DNA of 64,000 nucleotides from an uncultured Acetobacteraceae bacterium. Its GTDB lineage: Bacteria > Acidobacteriota > Terriglobia > Terriglobales > Acidobacteriaceae. A program made the position numbers and the translations under genes. Below, piece after piece: positions 2,791 through 63,803 of this stretch. Location: contig CAZZZL010000011.1 in the NCBI GenBank assembly GCA_964658655.1, positions 15,774-79,773 on the forward strand. Reading direction: 5' to 3'. The notes beneath the pieces are model-generated. The model worked only from the letters and a program-made list of their open reading frames with translations. It had not been told where the DNA came from and made no database searches. Each line of letters opens with the position of its first letter. Positions within the stretch are counted from its first letter, which is position 1.

Positions 2791-2843
2791 TTCGCTGCGA
2801 CCAGCCAGACTTTTCAGGAGCGCGGCGCGGGACTTGATTTCTC

Positions 2844-3506: not shown

Positions 3507-3612
3507 GGCCGATCCGCCCCTCTTGCCCGCTGCAATCACTATGACGCAAAAGCGTCTACAGAGTGCTCGGAAATGAAGCCCTTAGAATCGGAATGAGGGC
3601 ACAGCTACAGAC

Positions 3613-4650: not shown

Positions 4651-4730
4651 AAGCTGCGAGGGTTGACTTTGTCCTGTTGCGGATGCCAAGCTTTAGAGTT
4701 TTGTAGAGGACGCATTCTGGAAGGGAAGTA

Positions 4731-5507
4731 ATGGCGACAGATTTGGGTCAACTGCCAGGCGTGGCGATTTCGGATGAACGACTGGCAGCGGCGCGACCTT
4801 ACCTGATCGATCAGGACTGGTCTGCCTACACGCCAGCACAGCATGCAGTCTGGACCGAGCTTGTGAGCCGGCGCATGCCGGAGCTCGAGATGCATGCATG
4901 CGCCGAGTACCTCGATGGCTTCGAGCGCATCGGTCTCCGCAAGGACGCCATTCCTGACCTGGCCGCGGTCAACCGCCGCCTGGGTCCGCGTACCGGCTGG
5001 AGTGCACGGCCCGTGAGCGGCTATCTTCCGGCGCCTGCGTTCTTCGAAATGCTCGCGACCCGCCAGTTTCCCACGACCATCAGTATCCGCGGTATAGAGT
5101 CGCTCGAGTACATTCCTGAGCCGGATATCTTTCACGATGTATTCGGCCATGTGCCCATGCACGCGCATCCGGTCTTCGCCGATTTCCTGCAGCACTATGG
5201 ACAGGTATGTACACAGCTGACGACAGAAGAGGACCTGTTGAAGATGGGTCGGCTCTTCTGGTTTACCGTCGAGTTCGGCGTGATCCGCCAGCAGGGCGAG
5301 ATCAAGCTGTACGGCAGCGGATTGATCTCGTCGCATGGCGAAGCAAGGTACGTCGTCGAAGGCGGACCAGAGATCAGGCCGTTCAACCTGGATGCCGTGA
5401 TGGCCCAGGACTTTTCCATCTCCGAGATGCAGCAGATTCTGTTTGCCGTCGAGTCGTTTGAAGAGATCTATGAGGCGACGGAGGAAGCCGAGCGAAGGCT
5501 GGGCTAG
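4731..5507 (+). CDS. phhA: phenylalanine 4-hydroxylase (pterin-dependent aromatic amino acid hydroxylase)
   Basis: 258 aa. Carries the iron-ligand motif PEPDIFHDVFGHVPMHAHPVFADF and the downstream FWFTVEFG...KLYGSGLISS. Confidence 0.9.
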   Translation: MATDLGQLPGVAISDERLAAARPYLIDQDWSAYTPAQHAVWTELVSRRMPELEMHACAEYLDGFERIGLRKDAIPDLAAVNRRLGPRTGWSARPVSGYLPAPAFFEMLATRQFPTTISIRGIESLEYIPEPDIFHDVFGHVPMHAHPVFADFLQHYGQVCTQLTTEEDLLKMGRLFWFTVEFGVIRQQGEIKLYGSGLISSHGEARYVVEGGPEIRPFNLDAVMAQDFSISEMQQILFAVESFEEIYEATEEAERRLG

Positions 5508-26649: not shown

Positions 26650-27684
<1,035 letters not shown>

Positions 27685-27759: not shown

Positions 27760-28644
27760 ATGAAGAATGAGCTCGGTGAACTGGCTGCGTTCGCGATGGT
27801 CGCGGAAGAACGAAGCTTTACCCGTGCCGCCGGTCGAATCGGCATTTCACAGTCGGCGCTCAGCCACTCGATGCGGGGGCTGGAAAAACGACTTGGCCTG
27901 CAGCTTTTGGCCCGGACGACACGAAGTGTCTCGCCTACGGCTGCCGGCATGGCGCTTCTTGAAGAACTTGCTCCTGCCCTGGAGCGTATCGAGAGGTCGC
28001 TGGCAGAGGCGCGGCAACAGAGAGAGAAGCCTGCAGGCCGTATCCGGCTGATTATTCCCCGAACCGCCGTCAAGGTGGTCCTGTTGCCAAAACTGGCCAG
28101 GTTCGCAGAACTTTATCCCGAGATCGTCCTTGAGGTCACGACCTCGAATGATCCTGTCGATCTTGTCGCCGGACAATATGATGCCGGGGTACAGATTGGA
28201 GAATTTATTCAGCGGGAGATGATCGCGGTGCGTGTCAGCAGCGATATGCGCCTGGCGGTTGTCGGCTCGCCTGAATACTTCAAGAGCCGCTCCCTTCCCC
28301 GGACGCCGCGCGACCTGAAAGACCATGCATGCATCGGCTTTCGATTTCAGAGCGGCATGTATCGATGGGAGTTCGAGAAGGGCCGGAAAGCCCTGACCGT
28401 GAATCCGCAGGGGCCCGTCACCTTTGATGATCCCGACCTCGTGATGCGCGCTGTGTTGAGAGGGATCGGCATCGGCACCGCGTTGGAAGAACCCCTTGCG
28501 GGGCTGATCGCCGAGGGTCGCCTTGTGCAGGTCCTGAAGGACTGGTGCCCGGTGTTCCCGGGATACTTTCTCTACTATCCGAGCCGACGCAATCAGCCGG
28601 CAGCGCTCGCCAGCCTGATCAGCACGCTGCGGATATCAGAGTAA
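27760..28644 (+). CDS. LysR-family transcriptional regulator, divergent from the AKR gene
   Basis: N-terminal wHTH LAAFAMVAEERSFTRAAGRIGISQSALSHSMRGLEKRLGLQLLARTTRSV plus a LysR substrate-binding domain. Confidence 0.9.
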   Translation: MKNELGELAAFAMVAEERSFTRAAGRIGISQSALSHSMRGLEKRLGLQLLARTTRSVSPTAAGMALLEELAPALERIERSLAEARQQREKPAGRIRLIIPRTAVKVVLLPKLARFAELYPEIVLEVTTSNDPVDLVAGQYDAGVQIGEFIQREMIAVRVSSDMRLAVVGSPEYFKSRSLPRTPRDLKDHACIGFRFQSGMYRWEFEKGRKALTVNPQGPVTFDDPDLVMRAVLRGIGIGTALEEPLAGLIAEGRLVQVLKDWCPVFPGYFLYYPSRRNQPAALASLISTLRISE

Positions 28645-33238: not shown

Positions 33239-34490
33239 GCATCTGCTCCGCCTGCATGTCAGACAGGCTGGGTACCTCGGCCAGTCTCAGCAGGATGGCG
33301 TCATCGCCGGTTGGGCTGCCGCAGGCCTTTGCCGTCGCCAGTTCAGTATCGTTGATGAGCTTGCGCTCCTTCTCCTGGGCAACCGGATCGACCGCCAGGC
33401 CGGCCACAGTCAGGTGCTCGGGTTCGGCCTGCCAGCGTGTCGAAACCGCTGCCAGCCCGGCTCCTGCCGCATCAGGCGAACCGCCAAGCTGACCACCTAT
33501 CTGTGAGTCGCCTTTCGCCTGGAGACAGGCTTCCATCCGCCGTCGAGCAATCTCGCGGTCATTGATCAATCGTGTCGCCAGCATCGTCGTGGAGGTCGCA
33601 GTCAATGGGTCCAGCACGATGATGCGGCCGATACGATGCAACTGATCCTGATCCATCTGGCGCAGCTCTGCACTTCGGTGCACATAGGACGGCACATTCA
33701 TCGACTTCTGCAGGTAGCGATACGCCGCAGCATAATCGCCGACTCCATAGCTCGTATCCGCAGCCCCCTGGAGAGCCGTAAAGTCTTCCGGATGCTGTGC
33801 CAGCAGCTGGCGGTAAAGTTCGAGGGCATCGACAGGGAAGTGCGACTCAACCAGCAGGCCGGCAATTTTCAGCTGCACTTCAAGATCGCTTGAAGGCGCA
33901 TTGCCGGAGGCGACCAGCAGTTCGGAGCGAGCCTGGTCGAACGATCCGCGGGAGATCAGGTAGCGTACCAATTCAAGCCGTGTCTCACGGCGCCTGATGT
34001 AGCCATCGCCTTCCCAATTGCCGTAGATCGCGGCATGAAAGTCCTGCTTGGCCAGGTCTTCGTTGCCGGCACGCGCGGCCAGCCGGGCCAGTTGAAGATT
34101 GATCTCCCCGCTGCCGGGCTCGGCCTCACGGAGAGTGTTGAAGTAGGCCGTTGCCTCCTGAATGCGTCCCGCAGAAGCCAGCGCGGAGGCCAGGGCGATC
34201 TCCATCTGCCGTTCTCCGGCCGGCGGCGCATAGAGCAGTGCGGACCGGAAGTCGTTGATGGCTACGATGGGTTGTTGCGCGTTCAACGCAGCTTTACCAC
34301 GACTAAACCAGCGATTCGCCAGCTCTTCCCGATGATCCGAATAGGATTTAAAAAGGAAGTGGGTGGCGACGGCAAGCAGTATGGTGATGAAAAGGACTGA
34401 CAGCAGCGCTACTGCGTCTTTAAAGACCAGCGCTCTCACCTGGTGACGCTCAATCGGACTAAGGTGAGATTTAAAGGCGGGAATCTGCAT
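33231..34490 (-). CDS. membrane-anchored TPR-repeat protein
   Basis: One N-terminal TM helix (AVALLSVLFITILLAVATHFLF) followed by TPR-like repeats. Its stop overlaps the longest ClC ORF by 8 nt. Confidence 0.65.
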   Translation of the reverse strand: MQIPAFKSHLSPIERHQVRALVFKDAVALLSVLFITILLAVATHFLFKSYSDHREELANRWFSRGKAALNAQQPIVAINDFRSALLYAPPAGERQMEIALASALASAGRIQEATAYFNTLREAEPGSGEINLQLARLAARAGNEDLAKQDFHAAIYGNWEGDGYIRRRETRLELVRYLISRGSFDQARSELLVASGNAPSSDLEVQLKIAGLLVESHFPVDALELYRQLLAQHPEDFTALQGAADTSYGVGDYAAAYRYLQKSMNVPSYVHRSAELRQMDQDQLHRIGRIIVLDPLTATSTTMLATRLINDREIARRRMEACLQAKGDSQIGGQLGGSPDAAGAGLAAVSTRWQAEPEHLTVAGLAVDPVAQEKERKLINDTELATAKACGSPTGDDAILLRLAEVPSLSDMQAEQMHE

Positions 34491-34695
34491 AAAGCGGTTT
34501 CAGAACTTTCAACACGTGGCGGAGCTGGCGTTTCTATTAGGTTACAGGACGATAGCGGGATAAACACAAACAGCAGCGAACGCCCTATTCCACGGAATTT
34601 GGGCGTAAATTAGCAGAAAACAACGTATAGACGTAATTGGCATCTCTCTGTAAAGCCGATCATTGACAAGAACAATAGATGCAAAGGAGCACCAA

Positions 34696-35745
34696 ATGGA
34701 ACGGCGCAGCTTTATCAAACAGGCAGCAGCTACGGCGGCACTCGCGAGCGTGGAAAAAGCGATCGGCCAGCCGGGCGACAAAGCGGCGTCCCTTCAGGGA
34801 GCAGCCGCGCGCACACCCGCGCCGATTGTCGCGACCGTGAATGGCATCGGGCGGCGTAAGCTCGGCCGCGCGGATGCGGAAGTCTCCATCATCGGTATCG
34901 GCGGCTATCATCTCGGCTTGCCCAGTGTCACCGAGCAGGACGCCATTCACATCATCCGGACAGCGCTCGATAGCGGCATCAACTTCCTCGATAACTGCTG
35001 GGATTACAACGACGGCGTGAGCGAGCAGCGCATGGGCAAGGCGCTGGCCGACGGCTATCGCCAGAAGGCGTTTCTGATGACGAAAATCGACGGCCGCACC
35101 GGCCCGGCTGCGACGCAGCAGCTCGAACAATCAATGTCTCGCCTGAAGACCGATCACATCGACCTGGTGCAAATCCACGAAGTCATTCGTATGACAGATC
35201 CAGAGCAGGCGTTCCAGCCCGGCAACGTGATCGATGTTTTGAAGCAGGCGCGCAAAGACGGAAAGATTCGTTTCATCGGCTTCACCGGTCATAAGAGTCC
35301 GGAGATGCATCTACACATGATCGAAATCGCAGACCGGCATGGATTTACCTTCGATACCGCCCAATTCCCGGTCAATGCGCTGGACGAGCACTATGACAGC
35401 TTTGGTCAGAAGGTGATACCGGTTGCTCACCAGCATGGCATGGCCGTACTGGGGATGAAGCCACTGAGCAATGGCGCAATCCTGAAGACCAACGCAGTAT
35501 CAGCAGTCGATGCGCTTCATTATGCCATGAGCGTACCTGTGACTATTACAATCACGGGCTGCGAGTCGATCGCTAACCTGGAACAGGCGCTCGGCGTCGC
35601 CAGAAACTTCAAGCCCATGGATGTGCAGCAGAAAATGGCTGTCCTGCAGAAGGTCGCTCCGTCTGCCATGGCCGGCGAGTTCGAGCGGTATAAAGTGTCG
35701 CATATCTATGACGGCACAATTAACAATCCGCAATGGCTGGGATGA
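34696..35745 (+). CDS. aldo/keto reductase with twin-arginine (Tat) signal peptide
   Basis: AAGGAG precedes ATG 34696. MERRSFIKQAAATAALASV is an RRxF[IL]K Tat motif. AKR core: NFLDNCWDYNDG, FLMTKI, DLVQIHEV, FIGFTGH. Confidence 0.85.
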   Translation: MERRSFIKQAAATAALASVEKAIGQPGDKAASLQGAAARTPAPIVATVNGIGRRKLGRADAEVSIIGIGGYHLGLPSVTEQDAIHIIRTALDSGINFLDNCWDYNDGVSEQRMGKALADGYRQKAFLMTKIDGRTGPAATQQLEQSMSRLKTDHIDLVQIHEVIRMTDPEQAFQPGNVIDVLKQARKDGKIRFIGFTGHKSPEMHLHMIEIADRHGFTFDTAQFPVNALDEHYDSFGQKVIPVAHQHGMAVLGMKPLSNGAILKTNAVSAVDALHYAMSVPVTITITGCESIANLEQALGVARNFKPMDVQQKMAVLQKVAPSAMAGEFERYKVSHIYDGTINNPQWLG

Positions 35746-36632
35746 CTATGAGGAATGCTACGCAATCGGCGGTTGAAACTGCTGCGGTGCAAGGCAGGCG
35801 TGCCTCACTGGAAGCAATACTCCGCGCATACGGCAGTATGATGGTTGCTTATTCCGGCGGCGTCGATTCTGCCTATCTCGCCTACGCCGCCTGCGAAGCC
35901 CTGGGCCGGGAAAATGTTCTGGCGGTGCTGGCAGATTCGCCCAGCCTGGCCCGCAGCCAGATGCGCGATGCAGTTGCCTTTGCTGAAGAGCAGAGGATCC
36001 CGTTGCTTGTGGTCGAGACCAACGAGATGGAGCAGGAAGCTTACACGCGCAACGATGCGCAACGTTGCTTCCATTGCAAGGATGAACTATTCGACGTACT
36101 GGAGCGCAAGCGAATCGAAACCGATTTCGCAACAGTTGTCTACGGTCTGAATGCAGACGACACTAGGGACTATCGACCTGGTCACGGCGCTGCGAACAAG
36201 CACAGCGTGAAGGCACCGCTGGCCGAGGCCTCACTCACCAAGGAGGACGTCCGGCAACTTGCAGCAGAGGCTGGACTGCGCGTCTGGGACAAGCCTGCAT
36301 CGGCATGCCTGTCCTCACGCATCGAGTATGGCCGCAAGGTAACGCCCGAAGCGCTGGAACAGGTCGAGTCCGCGGAAGAGGCGTTGCGCGACCTGGGCAT
36401 GATTCGCTTTCGTGTTCGTCATCATGGAACGGTCGCCCGCATCGAGATTGCACCCGAAGAAATGGCGCAATGGTTGTCGCCGCAGCACTTTAAAACGATC
36501 AGCGACCGCGTACGGGCATGCGGATTTCAATTCGTGTCTGTCGACTGCGATGGCTACCGGTCAGGTGCCATGAATGAGGTGCTGCCGTTTTCAGTATTGC
36601 TTGCAGCCTCTGAAGGAAAACGAACCGCATGA
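35742..36632 (+). CDS. larE: LarE, PP-loop ATP-dependent sulfur transferase of nickel-pincer nucleotide biosynthesis
   Basis: PP-loop VAYSGGVDSAYL, then CFHCKDELF and KPASACLSSRIEYG. ATG 35742 overlaps the AKR stop (ATGA). The track start 35733 is also possible. Confidence 0.85.
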   Translation: MTMRNATQSAVETAAVQGRRASLEAILRAYGSMMVAYSGGVDSAYLAYAACEALGRENVLAVLADSPSLARSQMRDAVAFAEEQRIPLLVVETNEMEQEAYTRNDAQRCFHCKDELFDVLERKRIETDFATVVYGLNADDTRDYRPGHGAANKHSVKAPLAEASLTKEDVRQLAAEAGLRVWDKPASACLSSRIEYGRKVTPEALEQVESAEEALRDLGMIRFRVRHHGTVARIEIAPEEMAQWLSPQHFKTISDRVRACGFQFVSVDCDGYRSGAMNEVLPFSVLLAASEGKRTA

Positions 36633-37996
36633 GAATTGCTTATCTTGAATGCTTCGCCGGTATCGCCGGTGATATGTTTCTTGGTGCCCTGGTCGATGCC
36701 GGTGTCGAGCCGGCTCTGCTGCAGGCCGCTGCCGACTCTCTGAAACTTGGTGTGCAACTTGAATTTAAGAAGGTCGATCGCAGCGGCATCCAGTCCACGA
36801 AGGCCCGAGTTCTACTGAACGGAGTCCAAGCTGAGGACGCTGGTGATGTCCAGGGCCATGTCCATGAGCACGCCGAAACGCACGAGCACTCGCATACGCA
36901 CGTCGACGATCAAGGCCATTCTCATACCCACACCCACTCGCATTCGCATAGTCATGAGCATGTGCACGGACGCAGTCTGTCAGAGATCCGTCACCTGATC
37001 GGCCACGCATCGATCACAGCGCGGGCCAAAGAGATCGCATTGCTGGCGTTCAATCGGCTTGGTACTGCAGAGGCAAAAATTCACGGCATGCCGATCGAGA
37101 ATGTTCATTTCCACGAAGTCGGCGCGGTGGATGCCATCATTGATATCGTCTGTGGCGCAGTGGGCGCTGATGCCCTCGATGTCGATGCATGGTACTGCTC
37201 CTCTATCAATACAGGCTCAGGATTTGTGGATTGTGCACACGGCCGCTTTCCCGTTCCAGCGCCCGCGACGCTTGAACTTCTGCAGGGCATGCCGGTTTAC
37301 AGTGAAGGCCCTGCCAAAGAGATGACCACTCCGACCGGCGCAGCACTGGTGAGCGCGCTTTCCTGCCGGTTTGAGCCAGTGAAAGCATTACGCAGTGACC
37401 GGACAGGCTATGGAGCGGGTTCCCGCAATCCGGAACGATTTCCCAACGTGCTGCGTCTCCGTGTCGGCACTACCGAAACCGTTAGCGATGCACAGGAGAC
37501 CAGTTCCGATCTAAACGATACAGTCACTGTGCTTGAATGCGCGATTGATGACGGCACGCCCGAGCTTCTGGCGCATTCTGCTCAACTCGTGATGGAGCAT
37601 GGCGCCCTCGACGTCATGCAGCAGCCCGCGGCAATGAAGAAGGGGCGCCTCGGAACGTTGTTCACAGTCATCTGCAGGCCCGCAGACGCGGACCACATGA
37701 ACCACCTGCTTTTACGCGAGACCTCGACGCTGGGCATTCGTTTTCGTAATGAACAGCGGACAATCCTGCAGCGGAGCATCGTAGACGTGTCTACTGATTA
37801 CGGTGTCATCCGCGTGAAAGTCGGCAGCAGTAATGACCAGATTGTCAATACTGCGCCCGAGTTTGAGGATTGCCGCAAAGCAGCCGTAACGCATAACGTT
37901 CCGCTTAAGCAAGTGATGCAGGCCGCTCTTATCGCCTATGCCATGCAGGCCCAAACTGATTCAGACGCTCACCACGTCGCTGCAGGTTTCCGATGA
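36629..37996 (+). CDS. larC: LarC, nickel insertion (cyclometallase) protein, DUF111 family
   Basis: MRIAYLECFAGIAGDMFLGALVDAG, a His-rich tract HVHEHAETHEHSHTHVDDQGHSHTHTHSHSHSHEHVHG (about 36845-36975), HFHEVGAVDAIIDIV. A single uninterrupted ORF. ATGA overlap with larE. Confidence 0.9.
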   Translation: MRIAYLECFAGIAGDMFLGALVDAGVEPALLQAAADSLKLGVQLEFKKVDRSGIQSTKARVLLNGVQAEDAGDVQGHVHEHAETHEHSHTHVDDQGHSHTHTHSHSHSHEHVHGRSLSEIRHLIGHASITARAKEIALLAFNRLGTAEAKIHGMPIENVHFHEVGAVDAIIDIVCGAVGADALDVDAWYCSSINTGSGFVDCAHGRFPVPAPATLELLQGMPVYSEGPAKEMTTPTGAALVSALSCRFEPVKALRSDRTGYGAGSRNPERFPNVLRLRVGTTETVSDAQETSSDLNDTVTVLECAIDDGTPELLAHSAQLVMEHGALDVMQQPAAMKKGRLGTLFTVICRPADADHMNHLLLRETSTLGIRFRNEQRTILQRSIVDVSTDYGVIRVKVGSSNDQIVNTAPEFEDCRKAAVTHNVPLKQVMQAALIAYAMQAQTDSDAHHVAAGFR

Positions 37997-38802
37997 GGTC
38001 CGACGTACTACTTTCTCTTCTCGAACAGGTGAAGTCCGGAGCCACTTCACCACACACCGCAGCAGAGCAGTTATCGCAGATATCTGTAGAGGACGCCGGC
38101 TTCGCCAAGATCGACCATCACCGGTCGCTGCGTATCGGTATGCCTGAGGTGATCTACGCAGCCGGTAAAACTCCGGAGCAGGTCGCCGAGATTTTTCTTC
38201 GCATGTCGCGCTCAGGCGAAAGTGTTCTGGCCACGCGAGCCTCTTCGGATGCGTGGCATGCGGTGCATCGAGCGGTACCCGAAGCTGTGTATCACACGAT
38301 GGCAAGGATCATCGGACTCAAGGGTAATGCAGCGCTGCCGCAAGCCCGTAAAATTGCCGTCGTCAGCGCCGGCACCAGCGATATGCCGGTTGCCGAAGAA
38401 GCCGCATTGACAGCGGAGTACATGGGCATAGACGTTGACCGGGTGTATGACGTCGGCGTAGCCGGTCTGCATAGAATCCTTGCGCAACAGAACCTGTTAC
38501 GAACTGCGAGTGCCGTGATCGTCTGCGCCGGTATGGAAGGCGCGCTGCCAAGCGTGGTCGGTGGGCTGGTCGGCGTCCCGGTCATCGCTGTTCCAACCAG
38601 TGTTGGCTATGGCGCTGCGTTTGGCGGAGTGGCTGCGCTGCTTGGCATGTTGAACTCCTGCTCCCCCAATGTGACAGTCGTCAATATCGATAACGGATTT
38701 GGTGCGGCCTACATCGCCACGATGATTGCCCGTGCGGGATGCGCATCCGAAGAACATGAAGCCCTAGATTCGCCGGAGATGATGCAGTCCATTGATTCTT
38801 GA
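37993..38802 (+). CDS. larB: LarB, pyridinium-3,5-biscarboxylic acid mononucleotide synthase (AIR-carboxylase-like)
   Basis: KIAVVSAGTSDMPVAEEAALTAEYMGI, AGMEGALPSVVGGLV..PVIAVPTSVGYG. ATGA overlap with larC. Confidence 0.9.
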   Translation: MRSDVLLSLLEQVKSGATSPHTAAEQLSQISVEDAGFAKIDHHRSLRIGMPEVIYAAGKTPEQVAEIFLRMSRSGESVLATRASSDAWHAVHRAVPEAVYHTMARIIGLKGNAALPQARKIAVVSAGTSDMPVAEEAALTAEYMGIDVDRVYDVGVAGLHRILAQQNLLRTASAVIVCAGMEGALPSVVGGLVGVPVIAVPTSVGYGAAFGGVAALLGMLNSCSPNVTVVNIDNGFGAAYIATMIARAGCASEEHEALDSPEMMQSIDS

Positions 38803-39382
38803 TCGGCTGAAACGAGAGACCTCCGAACTTCACCTGGCAACGGAAGCCGCCATGCCTTTTAATGATCCTACGTTTGACTTGACCGCATATCGCCGGCTAT
38901 TGCTGCGCACCTATGGATTTTTCGCCACGTGGGAAAATGCGGCTTCGCATGTAGAAGATCCAGCCATCAAGTCGCTGCTTCAGGATCGATCCCGTCTGAA
39001 GGACCTTCAATACGATCTTCAGTGGCTTGAAGAGCCACTACCAGGCGAAGTGTTGCCGATGGACCGTTTGCCGGACTTCAGCAGTCCGGCAAATCTGCTG
39101 GGCTCCATGTACGTCACCGAGGGATCGACCCTTGGAGGACAGGTGATTGCGCGAATGCTTGAAAGAAAGCTTGAGCTCGCACACGGTAATGGTAATTCTT
39201 TTTTTGTTGGACATGGCCCGGCGACCGGGAACCGCTGGAAAGCGTTCTGCCGATTTCTCGTCGACTGGTCCAGCGCTCATCCTGGCGCAGAAGACGCGAT
39301 GGTCCGCGCAGCGTGCAAGACTTTTGAAGCTTACAAATCCTGGGTCGGCAGCACCGTTAAACAGGGGGCCGCGCCGCTATGA
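38792..39382 (+). CDS. bphO: biliverdin-producing heme oxygenase (BphO-type)
   Basis: TTG start. LKRETSELHLATE carries the proximal His context. GSMYVTEGSTLGGQVI is the heme-oxygenase signature. It overlaps the larB end by 11 nt and the bphP start by ATGA. Confidence 0.8.
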   Translation: MILDRLKRETSELHLATEAAMPFNDPTFDLTAYRRLLLRTYGFFATWENAASHVEDPAIKSLLQDRSRLKDLQYDLQWLEEPLPGEVLPMDRLPDFSSPANLLGSMYVTEGSTLGGQVIARMLERKLELAHGNGNSFFVGHGPATGNRWKAFCRFLVDWSSAHPGAEDAMVRAACKTFEAYKSWVGSTVKQGAAPL

Positions 39383-41655
39383 GCGTAACGCAGGCCCAGT
39401 TGACTTCGTGTGACCGCGAACCAATTCATGTACCGGGGAGTATTCAGCCGCACGGGTTTCTTCTGGCGTTGGACTTAAACACTTTGAGTGTGCAGGCCGC
39501 CAGCGAAACAGCTGTAACGTATCTTGGCAAGCCCTTGTCTGAGATCATCGGTCGCACAGTCGGCGAATTGCTTGACGCCGATTTTCGTCGGCAGTTTGAA
39601 CAGCGCATTACGATCGTTAAGGAGACTTTTCAAGCGCGCTGGCTGTTCACCATGGCGCTGCCAGGCGTTTCGTGCGCGGATGAGTTTGAAGTGATTGCTC
39701 ACCTGACGAACGAGGAAGTTATTTTGGAATTCGAACGCATATCAGGATCATTTGATTTCCAATCGCTTGATGCCGAGCTCTACAAAATCATAGCGGACAC
39801 GCAGACGCTTGGATCTGCCGAGCAGATAGGCGAGCTCGCGGTGCGGGAGATTCGCCGCATTACCGGCTTCGATCGAACACTCATGTATCGTTTCGACGCG
39901 GATGGACACGGCACCACGATTGCCGAAGTCACGAATGAACGGTTGCCTTCCTATCTACATCTTCGCTTTCCGGCTTCTGACATTCCTGTTCAGGCGCGCC
40001 GTCTCTATGTCATGAACCGCATCAGGATCATCCCCGATGTGGACTACACACCATCGGTCATAGTTTCAGGTGAGGTGCCGGGCGATATGCCGGCGTCCAT
40101 CGATCTTTCGGGGTCTGTGCTGCGCAGTGTCTCGCCTGTCCATCGCGAATACATGCGGAATATGGGCACGCGCAGTTCGATGTCCATCTCAGTTGTGATA
40201 AACAACCAGTTGTGGGGCCTCATTTCCTGCCATCATGCCACCCCGAGGTTTGTCCCGTTTCGTTTACGCTCAGCTTGCGAATTCCTGGTGCAGATACTTT
40301 CCACGCAGCTCGCAGCGCAACTACGCGCGGCGGAATTATCAAAGACGATTCAACTTAAGAGCGTGCAGCAGAGGCTGCTGACGCATATGGCGGCGGAGGA
40401 GTCCTACATCGACGGGCTTGCAAGGTATCCGGATGACCTGCTGGAACTGACCGAAGCGAATGGCGCTGCGATCGTCGTCGGCGAGACATGCCGACTGATC
40501 GGGAGCACCCCTTCAAAGGATGAGGTGTTGTCGCTCGCAGCCTTCTTCGAAAAGCGAGGACATGATGACAGTTTTTCAACGGATCAGTCAGCCACGCTAT
40601 TGCCTGAAGCCGCAGCCTGGAATGCGAGCGCGAGCGGTGTGCTCGCCATTTTCATTTCCAAAATTCATCGTACGGTCGTCTTGTGGTTCCGGCCGGAGCT
40701 GGTCAAAACAGTGAAGTGGGCTGGGAATCCCGCCAAGCCGATGGAGGCAGAGGGCGACAACAAGATTCAGCCCAGGCACTCGTTCGCGGAGTGGTCCGAG
40801 AGCGTTCGCGGTCGCTCGGCACCGTGGTCGCAAGAGGTGCTTGCAGCGGCCGGCGAACTGCGTATGGCCATCCTCGAAGTGGTGCTTAAGCAGGCGGAAG
40901 AAATGGCCGACATGGCAAATAATCTCCGCTCGGCGAACCAGGAACTCGAAGCCTTTTCCTACTCGGTTTCACACGACCTCCGTGCTCCGTTCCGGCACAT
41001 CACGGGCTTCTCACAGCTGCTGCTCGAACTGGAAGCTGACAGCCTTTCGCCCACGGGGAAACGGTATGTCAATACAATCGTTGATTCGGCAAAGTTCGCC
41101 GGCCAGTTAGTCGATAGCCTGTTGAACTTTTCACGCATAGCCCGTTCAAGCATGACCCTGATGCCTGTAGATTTGCATTCGGTATTTGAGGAGCAGTGGC
41201 ACGATCTGATGAGCGTTGAGGGCGCCGGCCGATCCATCGAGTATGCGTTGGGGCAACTTCCGATAGTGCGCGGCGATCTTACCCTGCTGCGACAGGTTGC
41301 CCGGAATCTGCTTTCCAATGCGGTCAAATATACGCGAAACAGGCCGATCGCGCATGTCACCGTGTCCTCCGTAGTGAAAGGGCTGGAGCATGTCATCAGC
41401 ATCGCCGACGACGGAGCAGGCTTTGATCAGGCATACGAAGGAAAACTGTTCGGCGTCTTCCAGCGTTTACATCGTAGCGAAGACTTTGAGGGGACTGGTA
41501 TAGGGCTTGCGAATGTCCGTAGAATCATTTCGAGACATGGTGGCAGGACCTGGGCGACAGGCCAGGTAGGTGTGGGTGCAACATTCTTTTTCACGCTGCC
41601 GGCTACGGTCGTTGCGACCGATGAGCCCGACGCGCTGACCGAAGAAACGCCATGA
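39379..41655 (+). CDS. bphP: bacteriophytochrome histidine kinase (PAS-GAF-PHY-HisKA-HATPase)
   Basis: N-terminal TSCDREPIHVPGSIQPHGFLL, with the biliverdin-attachment Cys11 at 39409-39411. GAF: RSVSPVHREYMRNMG, WGLISCHH. H-box SYSVSHDLRAPFRHI. CA domain: NLLSNAVKY, DDGAGF, GTGIGLA. Confidence 0.9.
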   Translation: MSVTQAQLTSCDREPIHVPGSIQPHGFLLALDLNTLSVQAASETAVTYLGKPLSEIIGRTVGELLDADFRRQFEQRITIVKETFQARWLFTMALPGVSCADEFEVIAHLTNEEVILEFERISGSFDFQSLDAELYKIIADTQTLGSAEQIGELAVREIRRITGFDRTLMYRFDADGHGTTIAEVTNERLPSYLHLRFPASDIPVQARRLYVMNRIRIIPDVDYTPSVIVSGEVPGDMPASIDLSGSVLRSVSPVHREYMRNMGTRSSMSISVVINNQLWGLISCHHATPRFVPFRLRSACEFLVQILSTQLAAQLRAAELSKTIQLKSVQQRLLTHMAAEESYIDGLARYPDDLLELTEANGAAIVVGETCRLIGSTPSKDEVLSLAAFFEKRGHDDSFSTDQSATLLPEAAAWNASASGVLAIFISKIHRTVVLWFRPELVKTVKWAGNPAKPMEAEGDNKIQPRHSFAEWSESVRGRSAPWSQEVLAAAGELRMAILEVVLKQAEEMADMANNLRSANQELEAFSYSVSHDLRAPFRHITGFSQLLLELEADSLSPTGKRYVNTIVDSAKFAGQLVDSLLNFSRIARSSMTLMPVDLHSVFEEQWHDLMSVEGAGRSIEYALGQLPIVRGDLTLLRQVARNLLSNAVKYTRNRPIAHVTVSSVVKGLEHVISIADDGAGFDQAYEGKLFGVFQRLHRSEDFEGTGIGLANVRRIISRHGGRTWATGQVGVGATFFFTLPATVVATDEPDALTEETP

Positions 41656-41674
41656 GATCGACTGAGGAGAGTAC

Positions 41675-42136
41675 GTGTTAAAGCCCATATTGTTGGTCGA
41701 GGACAATCCACGCGACCTGGAATTAAGCCTGGCGGCGCTTGAGAAGAGCAAGCTCGCGAATGAAGTCATCGTGGCACGCGATGGGGAGGAAGCACGCGAT
41801 TATCTTTTCCGGAGAGGCGAGCATCACGATCGTTCCACCGGTCTGCCTGCAGTCGTATTGCTCGATCTGAAGCTGCCGAAAATCGATGGTCTGGAACTGC
41901 TCGCGATGATCCGTCAGGACGAAGCGCTGTCTAATCTGCCGGTCGTCATGCTGACATCGTCACGCGAAGAACGCGACGTCATCAGCAGCTACAAGTTGAA
42001 GGTCAACGCTTTTGTGGTGAAGCCGGTAGAGTTCAGTGAGTTTATACAAGCTATCCAGGACCTGGGCGTATTCTGGGCCGTTCTGAATGAGCCGCCGCCA
42101 GGCAGTCTGAGGGTCTTTCGCGATGGAAGTGTCTAG
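41675..42136 (+). CDS. single-domain CheY-like response regulator
   Basis: GAGGAG lies 5 nt before GTG 41675. ILLVEDNPRDLEL, VVLLDLKLPKIDG, VVMLTSS, NAFVVKP. Confidence 0.9.
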   Translation: MLKPILLVEDNPRDLELSLAALEKSKLANEVIVARDGEEARDYLFRRGEHHDRSTGLPAVVLLDLKLPKIDGLELLAMIRQDEALSNLPVVMLTSSREERDVISSYKLKVNAFVVKPVEFSEFIQAIQDLGVFWAVLNEPPPGSLRVFRDGSV

Positions 42137-43658
42137 GCCCGCGCAGTCTACAGGCGGTCGCAATGTCGACCTGTTAATCCTCGAAGACAACGCGATGGAT
42201 GTCGAGCTCGCACTTGCCCATCTTGGAAAGGCGGGCTTCGGAGTCAATGCTTTTGTTGCTACGACCCGGCAGGAGTTTGTTGATCTTCTTGAGGCCCGTA
42301 ATTATGACCTGATCCTTTCTGACTATGCTCTCCCTGACTTCGATGGCGCGACTGCGCTGCGCATGGCGAAGTCACGTTTTCCCCGCGTGCCAGTCATCGT
42401 TGTTTCTGGACGCCTCGGAGAAGAGATCGCTATCGATACGCTGCACCTCGGAGCGACCGACTATGTTTTGAAGCAGCGCATTGAACGCCTGGTTCCTGCA
42501 GTTAAGCGAGCGCTTGCCGAGGCAGATGAACATGCCACACGGCTCCGCGCCGAGGCGCGTGCACGCGAGAGCGAGGACCGCTTTCAACAGCTCACCAATA
42601 ACCTGCCGCAGATGGTCTGGACCACGGATAACTACGGCAACATCACTTACGCAAACGATGCGTGGCAGCGCGCTATCCCGGCAAACATCAAGCACTGGCG
42701 TGATCCATCCATCCTGCACCCCGATGATCTGAACCGCTGCGTTGAGGCTGCCAAAGTGGCCGGCCGCACCCGTCAGCCCTTTTCAATAGAGTGCCGGTAC
42801 CTGCACCAGGGCGACGGTATCTATCACTGGAGCCTGCTGAGGGCGGTTCCCTTTGACAGCTCTGAAGGCACACCTGCATGGCTGGGTACGGCTACCGATC
42901 TGCATGAACAGAAGCTGCGTGAAGAGTCCTTCCGCACCGCGGAGAAACTCGCCGTCACCGGGCGAATGGCAGCGTCGATTGCGCATGAGATCAACAATCC
43001 GCTTGAATCGCTCATGAACCTGGTTTTTCTTTTGCAGGCAGATCAGCAGATAGCCGGCAATGCTCGCAAGTATCTGGATATGGCTGAGCAGGAACTGGAG
43101 CGCGTTTCGCTCATCGTCAAGAAGACGCTGCAGTTTTATCGCGAACCCGAGACGGTTTCCCAGGTCGATGCCCTCGAGTTATTTGAAGGCGTGATCCACA
43201 TGTTCCAGGGTCGACTGAGTGGCAAGAAGATTCAGATCGAGGCAATCGTACCTGATAAAGTTACGTTTACAGCAGTGTCCGGTGAAATTCGACAGGTCAT
43301 TGTGAATCTTGTAGCGAATTCGATTGACGCTGTCGAAACCGAGGGTCGCATCGAACTCCATGCGCGGACATATCTGCAGGAAACCTTCGAGGGCCAGGGC
43401 CGGCGTGCGATGGCTGAGTTGACGGTGACTGACAACGGCATCGGCATTACCCATGAACAGGCGGAACAACTTTTTCAACCCTTCGTTTCAACCAAGGGCG
43501 CGCACGGAACGGGTCTTGGCCTATGGGTATCGCGGGGCCTGGTTGAGAAAAACGGTGGAACACTCCAGCTTGAAACTCGCCGACAGGATGGCGCCTCGAC
43601 GACAGTCGCCACCACCCTTCTGCCGGTGGAAGCTATCGAAGCTGGCGGCGATACTTAG
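42123..43658 (+). CDS. receiver-PAS-histidine kinase hybrid
   Basis: REC: LILEDNAMDVEL, LILSDYALPDFDG. PAS: QMVWTTDNYGNITYAN. H-box ASIAHEINNPL. CA domain: VNLVANSIDA, DNGIGI, GTGLGLWV. It overlaps the RR gene by 14 nt. Confidence 0.85.
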   Translation: MEVSRPAQSTGGRNVDLLILEDNAMDVELALAHLGKAGFGVNAFVATTRQEFVDLLEARNYDLILSDYALPDFDGATALRMAKSRFPRVPVIVVSGRLGEEIAIDTLHLGATDYVLKQRIERLVPAVKRALAEADEHATRLRAEARARESEDRFQQLTNNLPQMVWTTDNYGNITYANDAWQRAIPANIKHWRDPSILHPDDLNRCVEAAKVAGRTRQPFSIECRYLHQGDGIYHWSLLRAVPFDSSEGTPAWLGTATDLHEQKLREESFRTAEKLAVTGRMAASIAHEINNPLESLMNLVFLLQADQQIAGNARKYLDMAEQELERVSLIVKKTLQFYREPETVSQVDALELFEGVIHMFQGRLSGKKIQIEAIVPDKVTFTAVSGEIRQVIVNLVANSIDAVETEGRIELHARTYLQETFEGQGRRAMAELTVTDNGIGITHEQAEQLFQPFVSTKGAHGTGLGLWVSRGLVEKNGGTLQLETRRQDGASTTVATTLLPVEAIEAGGDT

Positions 43659-43813
43659 CCGCTTGTGACCTTGAGGAAGGTGCGGCCGCGATATTCCGAA
43701 CATGCCTACGCACTTCCTGTGGCATGGTGTATCGTCGTCGAATGTTTGACACAGTAAGCCTGTTGAATTGAATGTTTAATTACACTTTTTAGTTTGAAGG
43801 GAAGATTCTGGAC

Positions 43814-45757
43814 ATGCGGTTGATCAGGCAGGGCGCGATATTCATCGTGCCCGCAACACTTTGCTTTCTTGCCGCGTTATCGGGCATCGCCCAGGATCCC
43901 GCACAGCCCCCGGCTGAAGACTACGTCAAGGCACACTACACAAAGTATGAATACAGGATCCCGATGCGTGACGGGGTCAAGCTGTTTACGTCCGTCTACG
44001 TGCCGAAAGACATGTCGATCACCTATCCGATCATGATGGATCGCACGCCCTATTCTGTCGCCCCGTATGGTGAAGATCAGTACAAGAAGAGCCTTGGCCC
44101 GTCGGACGAATTTGAGAAGGCCGGTTACATCTTTGTCTACCAGGATGTACGCGGCCGATACGAGTCGGAAGGCGAGTTTATCGAGATGCGTCCGCACATC
44201 GATAACAAGTCTTCCTCGAAGGATGTCGACGACGCCTCAGACATGTATGACTCGGTTGAATATCTTCTGAAGCATTTGCCGGATAACAATGGGAAGGTCG
44301 GCATCTGGGGCATTTCCTACCCCGGTTTTTACACCTCCGCGAGCATCATCGATTCGCATCCAGCCATCAAGGCAGCCAGTCCCCAGGCGCCGATGACAAA
44401 TCTTTTTATGGGCGATGATGCTTATCATGGTGGCGCATTCATGCTCGCGGCCAACTTTGGCTTCTACGCAAATTTCCTTCCGCAGAAGAATCCCATCAGC
44501 GCAGTCGATGCTGAAAAGGTGATCCCGTTCGATGCCGGGACACCGGACGACTACGAGTTTTATCTCAAGGCTGGCGCGACTGAAAACCTGGCCACCCACT
44601 ATCTCAAGAATGGGAACTGGCTCTTCAATGACCAGCTCCATCACACCACGTACGACGATTACTGGAAGGCCCGCAACCTTGCCCCGCATATGAAGAATGT
44701 TCACTGCGCCGTGATGGTTGTCGGTGGCTGGTATGACGCTGAGGATCTTTCCGGCCCGTGGAGAACCTGGGAATCCATCGGCAAATTAAACCCTGGAACA
44801 GTGGACACCATTGTCGAGGGGCCGTGGGTGCATGGCGGCTGGGCGCGCTCTGACGGCGATCACCTAGGCGACGCAACCTTCAATGCGAAGACGGGTGAGT
44901 ATTTTCGGAAGAACATCCAGTTTCCGTTTTTCGAGTATTACCTCAAAGGCAAGGGTGACGCGCTGCCGAAAGCTTATATGTTTGAGACCGGCACAAATGT
45001 GTGGCGTAAATACGACGCGTGGCCGCCGAAGAACGCCGCGACAAAGACGCTTTATTTTCATGCAGACGGCAAGCTCTCCTTCGAGCCGCCGACCGCTGCA
45101 GAAGCTTCGGCGAGCAGGTTCGATGCATATGTAAGTGACCCTGCTCACCCAGTGCCCTTCGTCGATTACACGACGGACACTGTTCCGCAGCGCTACATGG
45201 TCGATGACCAGCGTTTCGCTTCGCGACGTCCGGATGTGCTGGTGTATGAAACCGAACCGCTCGAGGAAGACGTGACCATAGCTGGTCCTATCACGCCGAA
45301 GCTAAAGATTGCATCGAGCTCGACTGACGCGGATTTTGTCGTGAAGCTGATCGACGTTTATCCGAACGATTATCCGGATGCACCCGAAACCTCGACCGGC
45401 AATAAGCGGATACTGAGTGCTCCTCCGCTGCATATGGGCGGCTATCAGCAATTGCTGCGCGGCGAACCCATGCGTGCAAAGTTTCGCGAAAGTTGGGAGA
45501 AGCCTTCAGCCTTGAAGCCTGGCGAGACGACCGAGGTCGACTTCAGCATGCCTGACCTCGACCACACTTTCCGGCAGGGCCATCGCATCATGGTGCAGGT
45601 GCAGAGCTCCTGGTTTCCGCTCGTCGATCGAAACCCACAGACTTTTGTCGATATCCCGCATGCCCTCCCGAAAGATTTTGTAAAGGCTACAGAACAGATC
45701 TATCGCGCACCAGATGCGGCTTCCGGCGTGGACGTGATGGTCGTGCCGCAGCCGTAG
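43814..45757 (+). CDS. CocE/NonD-family (S15 X-Pro dipeptidyl-peptidase-like) secreted hydrolase
   Basis: Signal peptide. IPMRDGVKLFTSVYVP, MDRTPY, YIFVYQDVRGRYESEG, GIWGISYPG (nucleophile elbow GxSYxG). C-terminal jelly-roll domain. Confidence 0.85.
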   Translation: MRLIRQGAIFIVPATLCFLAALSGIAQDPAQPPAEDYVKAHYTKYEYRIPMRDGVKLFTSVYVPKDMSITYPIMMDRTPYSVAPYGEDQYKKSLGPSDEFEKAGYIFVYQDVRGRYESEGEFIEMRPHIDNKSSSKDVDDASDMYDSVEYLLKHLPDNNGKVGIWGISYPGFYTSASIIDSHPAIKAASPQAPMTNLFMGDDAYHGGAFMLAANFGFYANFLPQKNPISAVDAEKVIPFDAGTPDDYEFYLKAGATENLATHYLKNGNWLFNDQLHHTTYDDYWKARNLAPHMKNVHCAVMVVGGWYDAEDLSGPWRTWESIGKLNPGTVDTIVEGPWVHGGWARSDGDHLGDATFNAKTGEYFRKNIQFPFFEYYLKGKGDALPKAYMFETGTNVWRKYDAWPPKNAATKTLYFHADGKLSFEPPTAAEASASRFDAYVSDPAHPVPFVDYTTDTVPQRYMVDDQRFASRRPDVLVYETEPLEEDVTIAGPITPKLKIASSSTDADFVVKLIDVYPNDYPDAPETSTGNKRILSAPPLHMGGYQQLLRGEPMRAKFRESWEKPSALKPGETTEVDFSMPDLDHTFRQGHRIMVQVQSSWFPLVDRNPQTFVDIPHALPKDFVKATEQIYRAPDAASGVDVMVVPQP

Positions 45758-61547: not shown

Positions 61548-62789
61548 ATGCCAGCCGCACCCATTCCAGAGAACGACACTGAACGCCTGGCAACCCTGCG
61601 TCGCTATTCTATTCTCGACACGCTGCCGGAGCAGAGCTACGAAGACCTGACCGCGTTGGCAACGTATGTTTGTGAGACGCCGACCGCACTCATCAGCCTC
61701 GTCGACCAGGAACGGCAATGGTTCAAATCCAGGGTTGGCATAGGTGTCGATGAGACAGAGCGATCGGTCAGCTTTTGTGCGCACACCATCGTCCATCCTG
61801 AAGTACTGGTCGTCGAAGATACGTTTCTCGATGAGCGCTTCGCAAAGAATCCGCTGGTGCTGTCGGGGCCGCACATACGTTTCTACGCCGGCGCGCCGCT
61901 GGTTGCGCCCAATGGCCACGTGCTGGGCACCATCTGCGTTATTGATTCGAAGCCGCGCACTTTAAGTGCTGCGCAGGTGGCTGCCTTGCAATCCCTGTCT
62001 CGCCAGGTCATGGCGCTGCTGGAATCAAGATTGCAGTTGCTTGACAATCAGAAGACCGCGGCGGCGCTGATGCAGAGTGAGAAGCTGGCCGCGGTGGGTC
62101 GTCTCGCCTCGAGCATGGCGCACGAAATCAACAACCCTCTCGAGGCCGTCACCAACCTGCTTTACCTCTCTCGCAATCAGGCGATCGATGAAAACGTAAA
62201 GGCATGGCTTGACCAGGCGGAGATCGAACTGCGCCGCGTCTCCATCATCGCCAACCAGGCACTTCGTTTTCACAAGCAGTCGTCGAATCCTCAGGCCATC
62301 AGCTGCCTCAGTCTGTTTTCGACTACGTTAAGCGTTTATGAAGGGCGCCTGCTCAATGCCGGCATCGTCGTGGAAAAGCGCAAGCGCGCAAATGAACCGG
62401 TGGAGTGCTTTGAAGGGGATATACGGCAGGTACTCAGCAGCCTTGTCACCAACGCCATCGACGCCATGCCGGGCGGCGGTCGTCTGCTCGTACGCAGCCG
62501 CGAGGGTACCGACTGGCGCACCGGTCGCCGCGGCCTGGTGTTGACCATCGCAGATACCGGTACAGGTATCGATAAAGCAACGCAGCGCCGCATGTACGAG
62601 GCATTCTTCACCACAAAAGGCATTGGCGGCTCCGGCCTCGGCCTCTGGATCAGTGCCGACATCATGCAGCGCCATCAAGGGCGCATCCTGATCCGCAGTT
62701 CACAAAATCCGGCCCACCAGGGAACGGTCGTCACACTATTTCTGCCCTTCATTGCGCCGGACCGAAGCCCTGCCACGGCTGTTCCCTGA
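61548..62789 (+). CDS. cytoplasmic GAF-domain sensor histidine kinase
   Basis: IPENDTERLATLRRYSILDT plus a GAF domain (RSVSFCAHTI, FYAGAPLVAPNGHVLGTICVID). H-box SSMAHEINNPL. CA domain: SSLVTNAIDA, ADTGTGI, GSGLGLWI. Confidence 0.85.
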   Translation: MPAAPIPENDTERLATLRRYSILDTLPEQSYEDLTALATYVCETPTALISLVDQERQWFKSRVGIGVDETERSVSFCAHTIVHPEVLVVEDTFLDERFAKNPLVLSGPHIRFYAGAPLVAPNGHVLGTICVIDSKPRTLSAAQVAALQSLSRQVMALLESRLQLLDNQKTAAALMQSEKLAAVGRLASSMAHEINNPLEAVTNLLYLSRNQAIDENVKAWLDQAEIELRRVSIIANQALRFHKQSSNPQAISCLSLFSTTLSVYEGRLLNAGIVVEKRKRANEPVECFEGDIRQVLSSLVTNAIDAMPGGGRLLVRSREGTDWRTGRRGLVLTIADTGTGIDKATQRRMYEAFFTTKGIGGSGLGLWISADIMQRHQGRILIRSSQNPAHQGTVVTLFLPFIAPDRSPATAVP

Positions 62790-62846: not shown

Positions 62847-63803
62847 CTAGACGTCGTTGCCCAGATGGAAGATCGGTTCTACGCCATTCGCCCGCGCCAA
62901 CAGGGCGACCTCTTCATGACGCTCGAGGGGCCGGTAGTTCTGAGCGACATCCATCGCCAGTCGAAAATACTTCTCATCCCCGGGCGGCAGCGCTGCGGTC
63001 ACCGGATGTCCCAGCGTCCAGCGCAGGCCGAGCGATGCTTCTTCCGGAAAAGAGGCAGGCTGGTACCAGCATTTCTCCTGCGGATGATTCTCCTTCTGGT
63101 CAGCCGCCCAGACTGTTTTGGCCATACCCTTCAACGCCAGGATGCCCATATTCTTTTCCTGCGCGCGCTTCAGGATCTGCGGTCCGAAATTTGCCTGCGA
63201 GAACAAGACAAAATTGACCGGAAATAAAACAGTGTCAAACTGGTACCGATCCATGGCTGCCAGCGCCGTCTCCGCCGAGTGCACCGAGAAGCCGATATAC
63301 CGTATCTTGCCCTCTTTTTTTGCCGCCTCCATTGTCTCCATCGCACCTCCCGGCCCCAGCACCTTGTCCAGGTCGGTCATCTTCGTCAGTGCATGGAACT
63401 GGTAGAGGTCCACGTGGTCGGTTTTCAGGAGACGCAGCGATTCCTCGAGTTGCTTACGCGAGTCATCCTTCATGCGGCCTTCGGTCTTGCATGCCAGAAA
63501 ACAGTTTTTCCGGTAGGGGGCAAGCGCCGGTCCGAGGCGCTCCTGCGCATTTCCATAACTTGGCGCTACGTCGAAGTAATTCACGCCACGATCTACGGCC
63601 TCGGCGACGATGTTGCTGGCCGGGCCCTTCTCCTCGTTCATGACGACGATTCCGCCGAAGCCGACGATGGAGAGTTTCTCGCCAGTCCTGCCCAGTGTTC
63701 GCTTCGGGATAGTCTGTGTCGGCGTGGCTGCCGGGGAAAGCTTCGTGCTGGCGGCGGCTGCTGCAGTGAGTGCGCTCTGTTTAAGGAAATCGCGGCGTTC
63801 CAT
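62847..63803 (-). CDS. second aldo/keto reductase with twin-arginine signal peptide
   Basis: The track ORF runs to 63875. ATG 63803 gives MERRDFLKQSALTAAAAAS (Tat motif). AKR core: NYFDVAPSYGNAQ, FLACKT, DLYQFHAL, YIGFSVH. Confidence 0.85.
   Translation of the reverse strand: MERRDFLKQSALTAAAAASTKLSPAATPTQTIPKRTLGRTGEKLSIVGFGGIVVMNEEKGPASNIVAEAVDRGVNYFDVAPSYGNAQERLGPALAPYRKNCFLACKTEGRMKDDSRKQLEESLRLLKTDHVDLYQFHALTKMTDLDKVLGPGGAMETMEAAKKEGKIRYIGFSVHSAETALAAMDRYQFDTVLFPVNFVLFSQANFGPQILKRAQEKNMGILALKGMAKTVWAADQKENHPQEKCWYQPASFPEEASLGLRWTLGHPVTAALPPGDEKYFRLAMDVAQNYRPLERHEEVALLARANGVEPIFHLGNDV

Follow-up and report, generated by a model that had tools for sequence, protein, structure and literature searches.

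The aldo-keto reductase (AKR) family has recently joined the clients of the nickel-pincer cofactors that are made by LarB, LarE and LarC. NphT of Alicyclobacillus is a hydride transferase dependent on the nickel-pincer mononucleotide (NPMN), and its structure is available as PDB 9YEB (Semersky et al., Nat Chem, June 2026; PMC13524815). The cofactor is bound covalently (+450 Da); in the structure it is tethered by Lys200 and its nickel is ligated by His144. NphT turns aldoses into lactone and alditol, a disproportionation that proceeds without NAD(P)H. The same study surveyed neighbourhoods anchored on LarC, in which LarB and LarE were present and no LarA lay within 20 open reading frames (ORFs), and found the AKR family PF00248 co-occurring in 427 instances. 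It also reported 798 AKRs with the His/Lys motif and foresaw that AKR homologues may bind the cofactor non-covalently or use its NPAD form. The terms Tat (twin-arginine translocation), twin-arginine, periplasm, signal peptide and secreted are not mentioned in its main text. The present analysis concerns a window of 64,000 nucleotides from an uncultured bacterium named as Acetobacteraceae and placed by GTDB in the Acidobacteriaceae (assembly GCA_964658655.1, contig CAZZZL010000011.1, positions 15,774 to 79,773), in which the gene of an AKR with a predicted Tat signal (AKR1, 34696-35745, + strand, 349 residues) is followed by larE, larC and larB. AKR1 is probably a periplasmic relative of the known NphT enzyme family.

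A further client outside the LarA superfamily is the NPAD-dependent ornithine cyclodeaminase, cited in PMC13524815 as Desguin 2025 (ref. 22). As described there, it shares with the role proposed for AKR1 the use of a Lar-derived cofactor and its discovery by gene neighbourhood, and differs in its fold, its non-covalent dinucleotide cofactor and its chemistry. Members of the LarA superfamily (PF09861) are likewise clients of the cofactor made by LarB, LarE and LarC, with a lysine thioamide and a histidine ligand to the nickel, but their fold is unrelated and they racemise or epimerise 2-hydroxy acids intramolecularly. To our knowledge, the characterised LarA enzymes are cytoplasmic. Sugar hydride shuttles exported by the Tat pathway are known from elsewhere, namely the glucose-fructose oxidoreductase (GFOR) of Zymomonas and the aldose-aldose oxidoreductase (AAOR) of Caulobacter (PMC4628093). 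These Gfo/Idh/MocA-family enzymes carry out the kind of reaction that is proposed here for AKR1, a redox-neutral periplasmic conversion of aldose into lactone and alditol that needs no free NAD(P)H, but they do so with a Rossmann fold and tightly bound NADP, and they have no dedicated cofactor-biosynthesis operon. The NADP of GFOR and AAOR is non-dissociable.

The first-pass annotation of this DNA had proposed AKR1 as a LarA-independent user of the nickel-pincer cofactor, on the premise that only LarA-type enzymes had been characterised as users. The premise is outdated, because NphT and the ornithine cyclodeaminase have been published as clients; the proposal itself is supported, at the level of sequence, by the NphT precedent, by the best PDB match, by the His/Lys motif and by an invariant twin-arginine motif. 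Its central idea, that an AKR can be a nickel-pincer client independent of LarA, was already published in 2026 and is hence not new. What appears to be left as new is a Tat-signal branch of nickel-pincer AKRs that extends across phyla, the occurrence of two such genes in one window, and a modular lar locus.

Among PDB sequences AKR1 matches 9yeb best, with E=2.3e-21, and the leading canonical AKR reaches 2e-15; with a profile of 20 relatives the two values become 1.5e-34 and 2.2e-23. When the residues of NphT are mapped onto AKR1 (the chain numbering of 9yeb is the paper numbering +3, as confirmed at nine positions), the catalytic tetrad D47/Y52/K75/H106 is kept as D99/Y104/K130/H161. T142 corresponds to T197, H144 to H199 and I199-K200 to M254-K255, the lysine being placed by profile alignment. 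The predicted nickel ligand H199 (codon 35290-35292) lies in a G-x-T-G-H motif after strand 5, and the predicted cofactor-tethering K255 (codon 35458-35460) after strand 7. The histidine is missing in 9w6y and 8jwk, two canonical PDB AKRs compared in a residue-level alignment, and in AKR3, a canonical AKR encoded elsewhere in the window; the lysine is missing in 8jwk and AKR3 as well. Both residues occur in all 79 AKR1-type genes from the fetched loci (79/79), while among 70 full-length representatives of 50%-identity clusters the histidine is present in 68 and the lysine in 62. Across 52 relatives from several phyla, down to 30% identity, the sole invariant columns are R3, R4, F6, G94, G114, R122, K130, H161, G195, H199 and K255.

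The Pfam profile gives a second line of comparison. PF00248 matches AKR1 with 114.6 bits, over profile positions 2-201 of 291 only. The match similarly covers positions 2-200 in NphT, 21-207 in AKR2 (a second Tat-signal AKR of the window, described below) and 2-202 in the positional orthologue of locus L025, whereas in the canonical AKR3 it runs from 2 to 288. Since it ends near position 200 of 291 in NphT and AKR1 alike, the third of the domain in which the AMP half of NAD(P)H is bound would be remodelled in the same way in both, which points to a dinucleotide-binding region in AKR1 of the NphT kind and, indirectly, to a cofactor cavity that may be too small for the AMP moiety. The canonical AKR pattern is not found in AKR1: in addition to the partial profile match, the best NCBIfam AKR equivalog scores 52.6 bits against a cut-off of 550. 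In the AlphaFold2 (AF2) model (pLDDT 92.1, pTM 0.88) AKR1 is a TIM barrel of eight beta-alpha units, in which strands 5 and 7 are immediately followed by H199 and K255, respectively, at the barrel's cofactor end. The top matches of this model in a Foldseek search of the PDB are all AKRs (TM 0.65-0.73); the library used, dated to 2026-04-08, is without 9YEB, and the result bears on the AKR fold only. NphT and AKR1 thus have in common the AKR TIM barrel, a lar-adjacent gene with no larA nearby, the tetrad, the histidine and lysine predicted to hold the cofactor, and the truncated PF00248 match.

A first difference from NphT is found at the N-terminus, where AKR1 has an extension of 50 residues with a twin-arginine motif that NphT lacks; the alignment with NphT starts at AKR1 residue 51. 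The sequence begins MERRSFIKQAAATAALAS, and its residues 1 to about 22 (34696-34761, + strand) form a predicted Tat signal peptide according to motif, conservation, signal models and the AF2 model. The motif E-R-R-S-F-I-K occupies codons 2-8, with the arginine pair at 34702-34707, and is followed by an Ala-rich hydrophobic (h-) region (QAAATAALAS) with a possible cleavage site between A-L-A and S. In the AF2 model residues 3-22 are helical, and a low-confidence linker (pLDDT 53-61) then extends to about residue 50. An RRxF motif is present in 20/20 lar-adjacent AKRs and in 68/79 overall; ten of the 11 genes without it are tblastn segments that start downstream of the N-terminus, and the remaining one, L071, has RK for RR. 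A Tat-like motif occurs in 45 of the 70 full-length cluster representatives. As for the signal models, AKR1 itself comes just short of the TIGR01409 cut-off, 12/20 relatives match this model at E<=1, and PF10518 is passed by the L025 orthologue (Acidobacteriaceae bacterium KBS 83; 25.4 bits against a cut-off of 22.7), has precomputed matches on several homologues, and gives 18.3 bits for AKR2. At the sequence level, the predicted Tat targeting of AKR1 is well supported.

The gene order, the coupling of the genes and their family identities are directly observed. A Shine-Dalgarno sequence AAGGAG (34684-34689, + strand) lies 6 nt 5' of the AKR1 ATG at 34696. AKR1 is followed on the same strand by larE (35742-36632), which encodes an ATP-dependent sulfur transferase (TIGR00268), by larC (36629-37996), which encodes a fused LarC1+LarC2 nickel-inserting cyclometallase (PF01969, 453 bits; TIGR00299 and NF052512), and by larB (37993-38802), which encodes a carboxylase/hydrolase of nicotinic acid adenine dinucleotide (NaAD; NF033503). 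All Lar proteins exceed the NCBIfam equivalog cut-offs: LarE scores 312.9 bits (cut-off 150), LarC1 204.5 (90), LarC2 144.1 (50) and LarB 294.9 (175). Stop and start codons overlap as ATGA at the AKR1/larE (35742-45), larE/larC (36629-32) and larC/larB (37993-96) junctions. The larE start is ambiguous, with in-frame ATGs at 35733, 35742 and 35748, each of which overlaps or abuts the AKR1 stop. A His-rich tract is found at about residues 75-113 of LarC. LarE shows the motifs SGGVDS, CxxC (RCFHC) and a third cysteine (SACLS) in its translation. The combination of SGGVDS with CxxC...C characterises the LarE of Thermotoga, which is catalytic and [4Fe-4S]-dependent, and not the sacrificial Lactiplantibacillus type (PMC9283937), and because of this match the larE product is probably of the [4Fe-4S]-dependent catalytic type. 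The name of the NCBIfam LarE model says 'sacrificial', despite these motifs.

The LarA family PF09861 (DUF2088) was not found among the 42 window ORFs scanned against Pfam, which include all the non-shadow ORFs of at least 220 aa; the scan covered intact ORFs of the 64-kb window, with shorter or frameshifted remnants outside it. The first-pass annotation had described an AKR with a Tat signal (RRSFIK), an AKR-larE-larC-larB order with ATGA junctions and the lack of a LarA-like ORF in the 64 kb. The ORF map and junction sequences bear out the order and the overlaps, the Pfam and NCBIfam equivalog models agree with the gene identities, the Tat signal holds at the sequence level with RRxF conserved in relatives, and the lack of LarA stands for non-shadow ORFs of at least 220 aa. 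A larA elsewhere in the genome would be compatible with the explanation given below.

Taken together, these features make it reasonably likely that AKR1 is loaded in the cytoplasm with a nickel-pincer cofactor made by the Lar proteins, exported by the Tat pathway and used as a periplasmic hydride shuttle. The attachment of the cofactor, the export of the protein, the type of reaction and the substrate are here extrapolated from NphT and from general Tat biology. One mRNA would give LarB, the Fe-S type of LarE and LarC, which would make NPMN from NaAD in the cytoplasm. NPMN would then be installed in folded AKR1, with a thioamide to Lys255 and with His199 completing the nickel coordination, and holo-AKR1 would leave the cytoplasm through its RRSFIK signal. 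In a periplasm without diffusible NAD(P)H, the tethered cofactor would shuttle hydride between carbonyl and alcohol by way of D99/Y104/K130/H161. The net reaction would be redox-neutral, a disproportionation or transhydrogenation of aldoses or aldehydes.

The divergence of AKR1 from NphT, the patchy association of the AKR with lar genes, a borderline signal score and the oxygen sensitivity of the cofactor all count against this explanation. Over 196 residues AKR1 and NphT are only 34% identical. The W218-Y219 cofactor/substrate loop of NphT is absent in AKR1, where K255 and helix 270-279 are joined by a shorter loop. Conversely, a conserved C-terminal tail of AKR1-type proteins, YKxSxxFDGTxxNPQWLG (residues 320-349), has no NphT counterpart; model confidence falls along it (pLDDT 81, then 60), and it may cap the cofactor pocket. 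Because of the low identity, the missing W-Y loop and the distinct tail, AKR1 is best regarded as a divergent NphT-type subfamily and not as a close homologue, and as such it appears to belong to the nickel-pincer AKR family, for which the W-Y loop is not a criterion in PMC13524815. An AKR given as an example in that paper, the putative orthologue A0A2Z5G7U8 (23.3% identical to NphT), was not recovered by the homologue search from the Acidipila AKR.

Since the W218-Y219 loop is absent and the C-terminal tail distinct, the pocket of AKR1 would differ from that of NphT, and AKR1 might use the Lar-made pincer in another manner: non-covalently, as the NPAD form, or in a net redox reaction coupled to a periplasmic electron carrier. 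The first two possibilities were foreseen for AKR homologues in PMC13524815. The invariance of the tethering lysine speaks for covalent attachment, LarB passes the equivalog model of the AMP-releasing enzyme, and the operon has no electron-carrier gene, so that such a departure from NphT is improbable.

Equally improbable is that AKR1 is a Tat-exported AKR with permanently bound NAD(P)(H), in the manner of GFOR, and that the adjacent lar genes are inherited synteny that serves another client, such as a LarA encoded elsewhere. Tat-exported oxidoreductases that shuttle hydride do exist, as GFOR and AAOR illustrate, and in most of the related loci the lar operon stands alone, just as the AKR does in most relatives. 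The distribution was followed in an AKR-anchored set of loci from 80 species genomes, in which lar genes were sought within 10 kb (8-10 kb for other phyla), and in a LarE-anchored set of 50 metagenome loci whose upstream sequence amounts to 1.1 kb or more. In the former, larE-larC-larB lie directly 3' of the AKR at the same ClC-TPR site in 17/80 loci (L001, L025-L035, L039, L040, L052), to which further metagenome loci can be added, and a neighbour-joining tree places the lar-adjacent AKRs in four Acidobacteriaceae lineages. The AKR of L001, a locus of the 5.28-Mb chromosome OY843586.1, is 93% identical to AKR1. Within 10 kb of the nearest sequence relatives of AKR1, in L002-L024 (70-82% identity), neither larE nor larB nor a larC of full length occurs, and only L003 has a LarC1-only gene. 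Most of these AKR genes adjoin a class II aldolase gene, and downstream of several lie genes resembling those of altronate/galactarate dehydratase and gluconolactonase, together with MsrPQ. No lar genes were found within 8-10 kb of the AKR members sampled from other phyla, and neither lar nor nickel genes in the neighbourhoods of distant Tat-AKR representatives. In the LarE-anchored set, the AKR is directly upstream (ClC-TPR-AKR-larECB) in 5/50 loci, about 16 have ClC-TPR-larECB without an AKR, and many more distant LarE genes have neither the AKR nor the ClC-TPR site.

Closer to the window, locus L164 (LarB 84% identical) repeats the whole window architecture with AKR and larE 11 nt apart, and only the window's closest relatives share the ATGA overlap of AKR1 and larE; in L165/L166 (LarB 80% identical) the flanks are the same on both sides, with the AKR and the downstream phytochrome module missing. 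As the adjacency is present only in some loci, it is recurrent and far from universal. Lack of conservation of this adjacency was among the conditions that the first-pass annotation had named as speaking against its proposal, and in many relatives the adjacency is indeed absent. The simplest history suggested by these patterns is an ancestral AKR-lar adjacency followed by repeated relocation. Replacement of a lar-adjacent paralogue by AKR1 was also considered and rejected; no genome in the 80 loci has two AKR1-type copies, and the tree fits ancestral adjacency with repeated loss.

A different association with nickel is found in a Silvibacterium metagenome-assembled genome (L003 / L082 7860-11050), where FUR, a TonB-dependent receptor, a NicO nickel permease and a LarC1-only protein (287 aa, PF01969 positions 1-235 of 375) precede an AKR that is 82% identical to AKR1. 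On the 3' side of this AKR come genes for an aldolase II, a dehydratase and a lactonase-like protein, and MsrPQ. The FUR-TonB-NicO-LarC1-AKR row is an independent nickel link, and together with the same-site adjacency in four lineages it argues against a role of permanently bound NAD(P)(H) in AKR1. So do the rank of NphT as the best solved relative of AKR1 by sequence, the dinucleotide-binding third that falls outside the PF00248 match as in NphT, and the invariant NphT His/Lys pair, which is missing in AKR3 and incomplete or missing in the canonical AKRs aligned with it. The residue-motif evidence counts for more than the adjacency.

The ClC-TPR site itself is modular. It holds AKR-larECB-bphOP in the window and L164, AKR-larECB in many loci, larECB alone in L165 (5756-8807) and about 16 metagenome loci, and larB alone in L172 (7001-7756). 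LarB alone is the arrangement at the ClC-TPR site of a Silvibacterium metagenome-assembled genome other than that of L003. A comparison of contigs with LarB matches and contigs with the non-adjacent AKRs of L002-L024 gave no match, and hints that the two share a genome come at genus level only, from Silvibacterium.

Export raises its own difficulties. AKR1 scores 15.5 bits with TIGR01409, just under the cut-off of 16.7, and its cleavage site is unclear. Nickel-pincer cofactors are oxygen-sensitive. The synthesis of NPMN and the loading of NphT were done in an anaerobic chamber (PMC13524815), and for these two reasons it is unexplained how the cofactor would survive in an aerobic periplasm. Least probable of the alternatives is a pincer-dependent AKR1 that is not released to the periplasm, its twin-arginine N-terminus serving as an uncleaved anchor or persisting as a remnant that is functionless or regulatory. 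In its favour are an h-region that is short and rich in Ala, the unusually short signal that the best AxA site (A15-L16-A17, before S) would give, and the borderline model score. Against it, R3, R4 and F6 are invariant across phyla, as a remnant would not be, orthologues pass PF10518, and an h-region of low hydrophobicity is what Tat signals usually have.

Cytoplasmic loading followed by Tat export may apply to more than one enzyme of this bacterium. AKR2 (62847-63803, - strand), a second Tat-signal NphT-like AKR, begins MERRDFLKQSALTAAAAAS, with its Tat motif in the initial MERRDFLKQ. It matches 9yeb over residues 34-307, nearly its full length, with E=2.6e-45, the next PDB match being at 3e-13, and it has the histidine, the lysine and the W-Y loop of NphT (CWYQP aligned to TWYEP). 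AKR2 is 32% identical to AKR1 and is much nearer to NphT than AKR1 is, yet it too bears a Tat signal. It is likely, as a candidate named on sequence grounds, to be a second client of the lar operon. The AKR2 gene is convergent with that of a GAF histidine kinase (61548-62789).

AKR3 (26650-27645, - strand) lies outside the system and serves as an internal negative control. This canonical cytoplasmic AKR (PF00248, 251.9 bits) has no RR motif, and it has Ala at the His column and Ser at the Lys column. Its gene is divergent from that of a LysR regulator (27760-28644, + strand). Judged by these sequences, the window contains one lar operon, two Tat-signal NphT-like AKRs and one canonical cytoplasmic AKR.

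The operon continues beyond larB as a same-strand series of response-regulator and phytochrome genes with overlapping or near-overlapping junctions (38792-43658, + strand). The haem oxygenase gene bphO (38792-39382) overlaps larB, the bacteriophytochrome gene bphP (39379-41655) follows with an ATGA junction at 39379, and a response regulator (41675-42136) and a hybrid histidine kinase with response-regulator and PAS domains (42123-43658) complete the series; the assignments rest on Pfam and on the junction sequences. The bacteriophytochrome module is joined to the lar operon only in the window, L001 and L164, and is missing between identical flanks in L165/L166. The bphO-bphP extension of the lar operon is lineage-specific. 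Light control of cofactor synthesis through this module is possible only. A riboswitch search gave no Rfam match at E<=1 across 34000-44000, and a scan for promoters and terminators gave signals no higher than expected from shuffled sequence. Elsewhere in the window, positions 979-5507 hold a cluster for aromatic amino-acid catabolism that is unrelated to AKR1 and the lar genes; it encodes a 4-hydroxyphenylpyruvate-dioxygenase-like protein, a luciferase-like monooxygenase and a biopterin-dependent hydroxylase.

Which enzymes larBCE serve in the absence of larA was answered in principle in 2026, and the AKR1 locus mainly confirms the answer in the Acidobacteriaceae. A broader proposition is that AKRs of one clade, present in Acidobacteriota, Verrucomicrobiota, Myxococcota, Chlamydiota and others, leave the cytoplasm through Tat with a covalently tethered nickel-pincer cofactor, that these are the first extracytoplasmic enzymes of the kind, and that one lar operon feeds at least two clients, AKR1 and AKR2; here the balance of the evidence tips neither way. 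Members of such a clade can be sought with a simple sequence rule, an RRxF signal combined with G-x-T-G-H and M/I-K. If the Tat signal works, assembly and tethering of the cofactor would take place in the cytoplasm, before its passage over the membrane, and the use of a covalent, self-contained hydride carrier would be explained, as it would permit redox chemistry between carbonyl and alcohol in a place that lacks NAD(P)H. Diderm bacteria would then have an NAD(P)-independent periplasmic hydride shuttle, a convergent counterpart of GFOR, and nickel-pincer enzymology would reach the periplasm of abundant soil bacteria.

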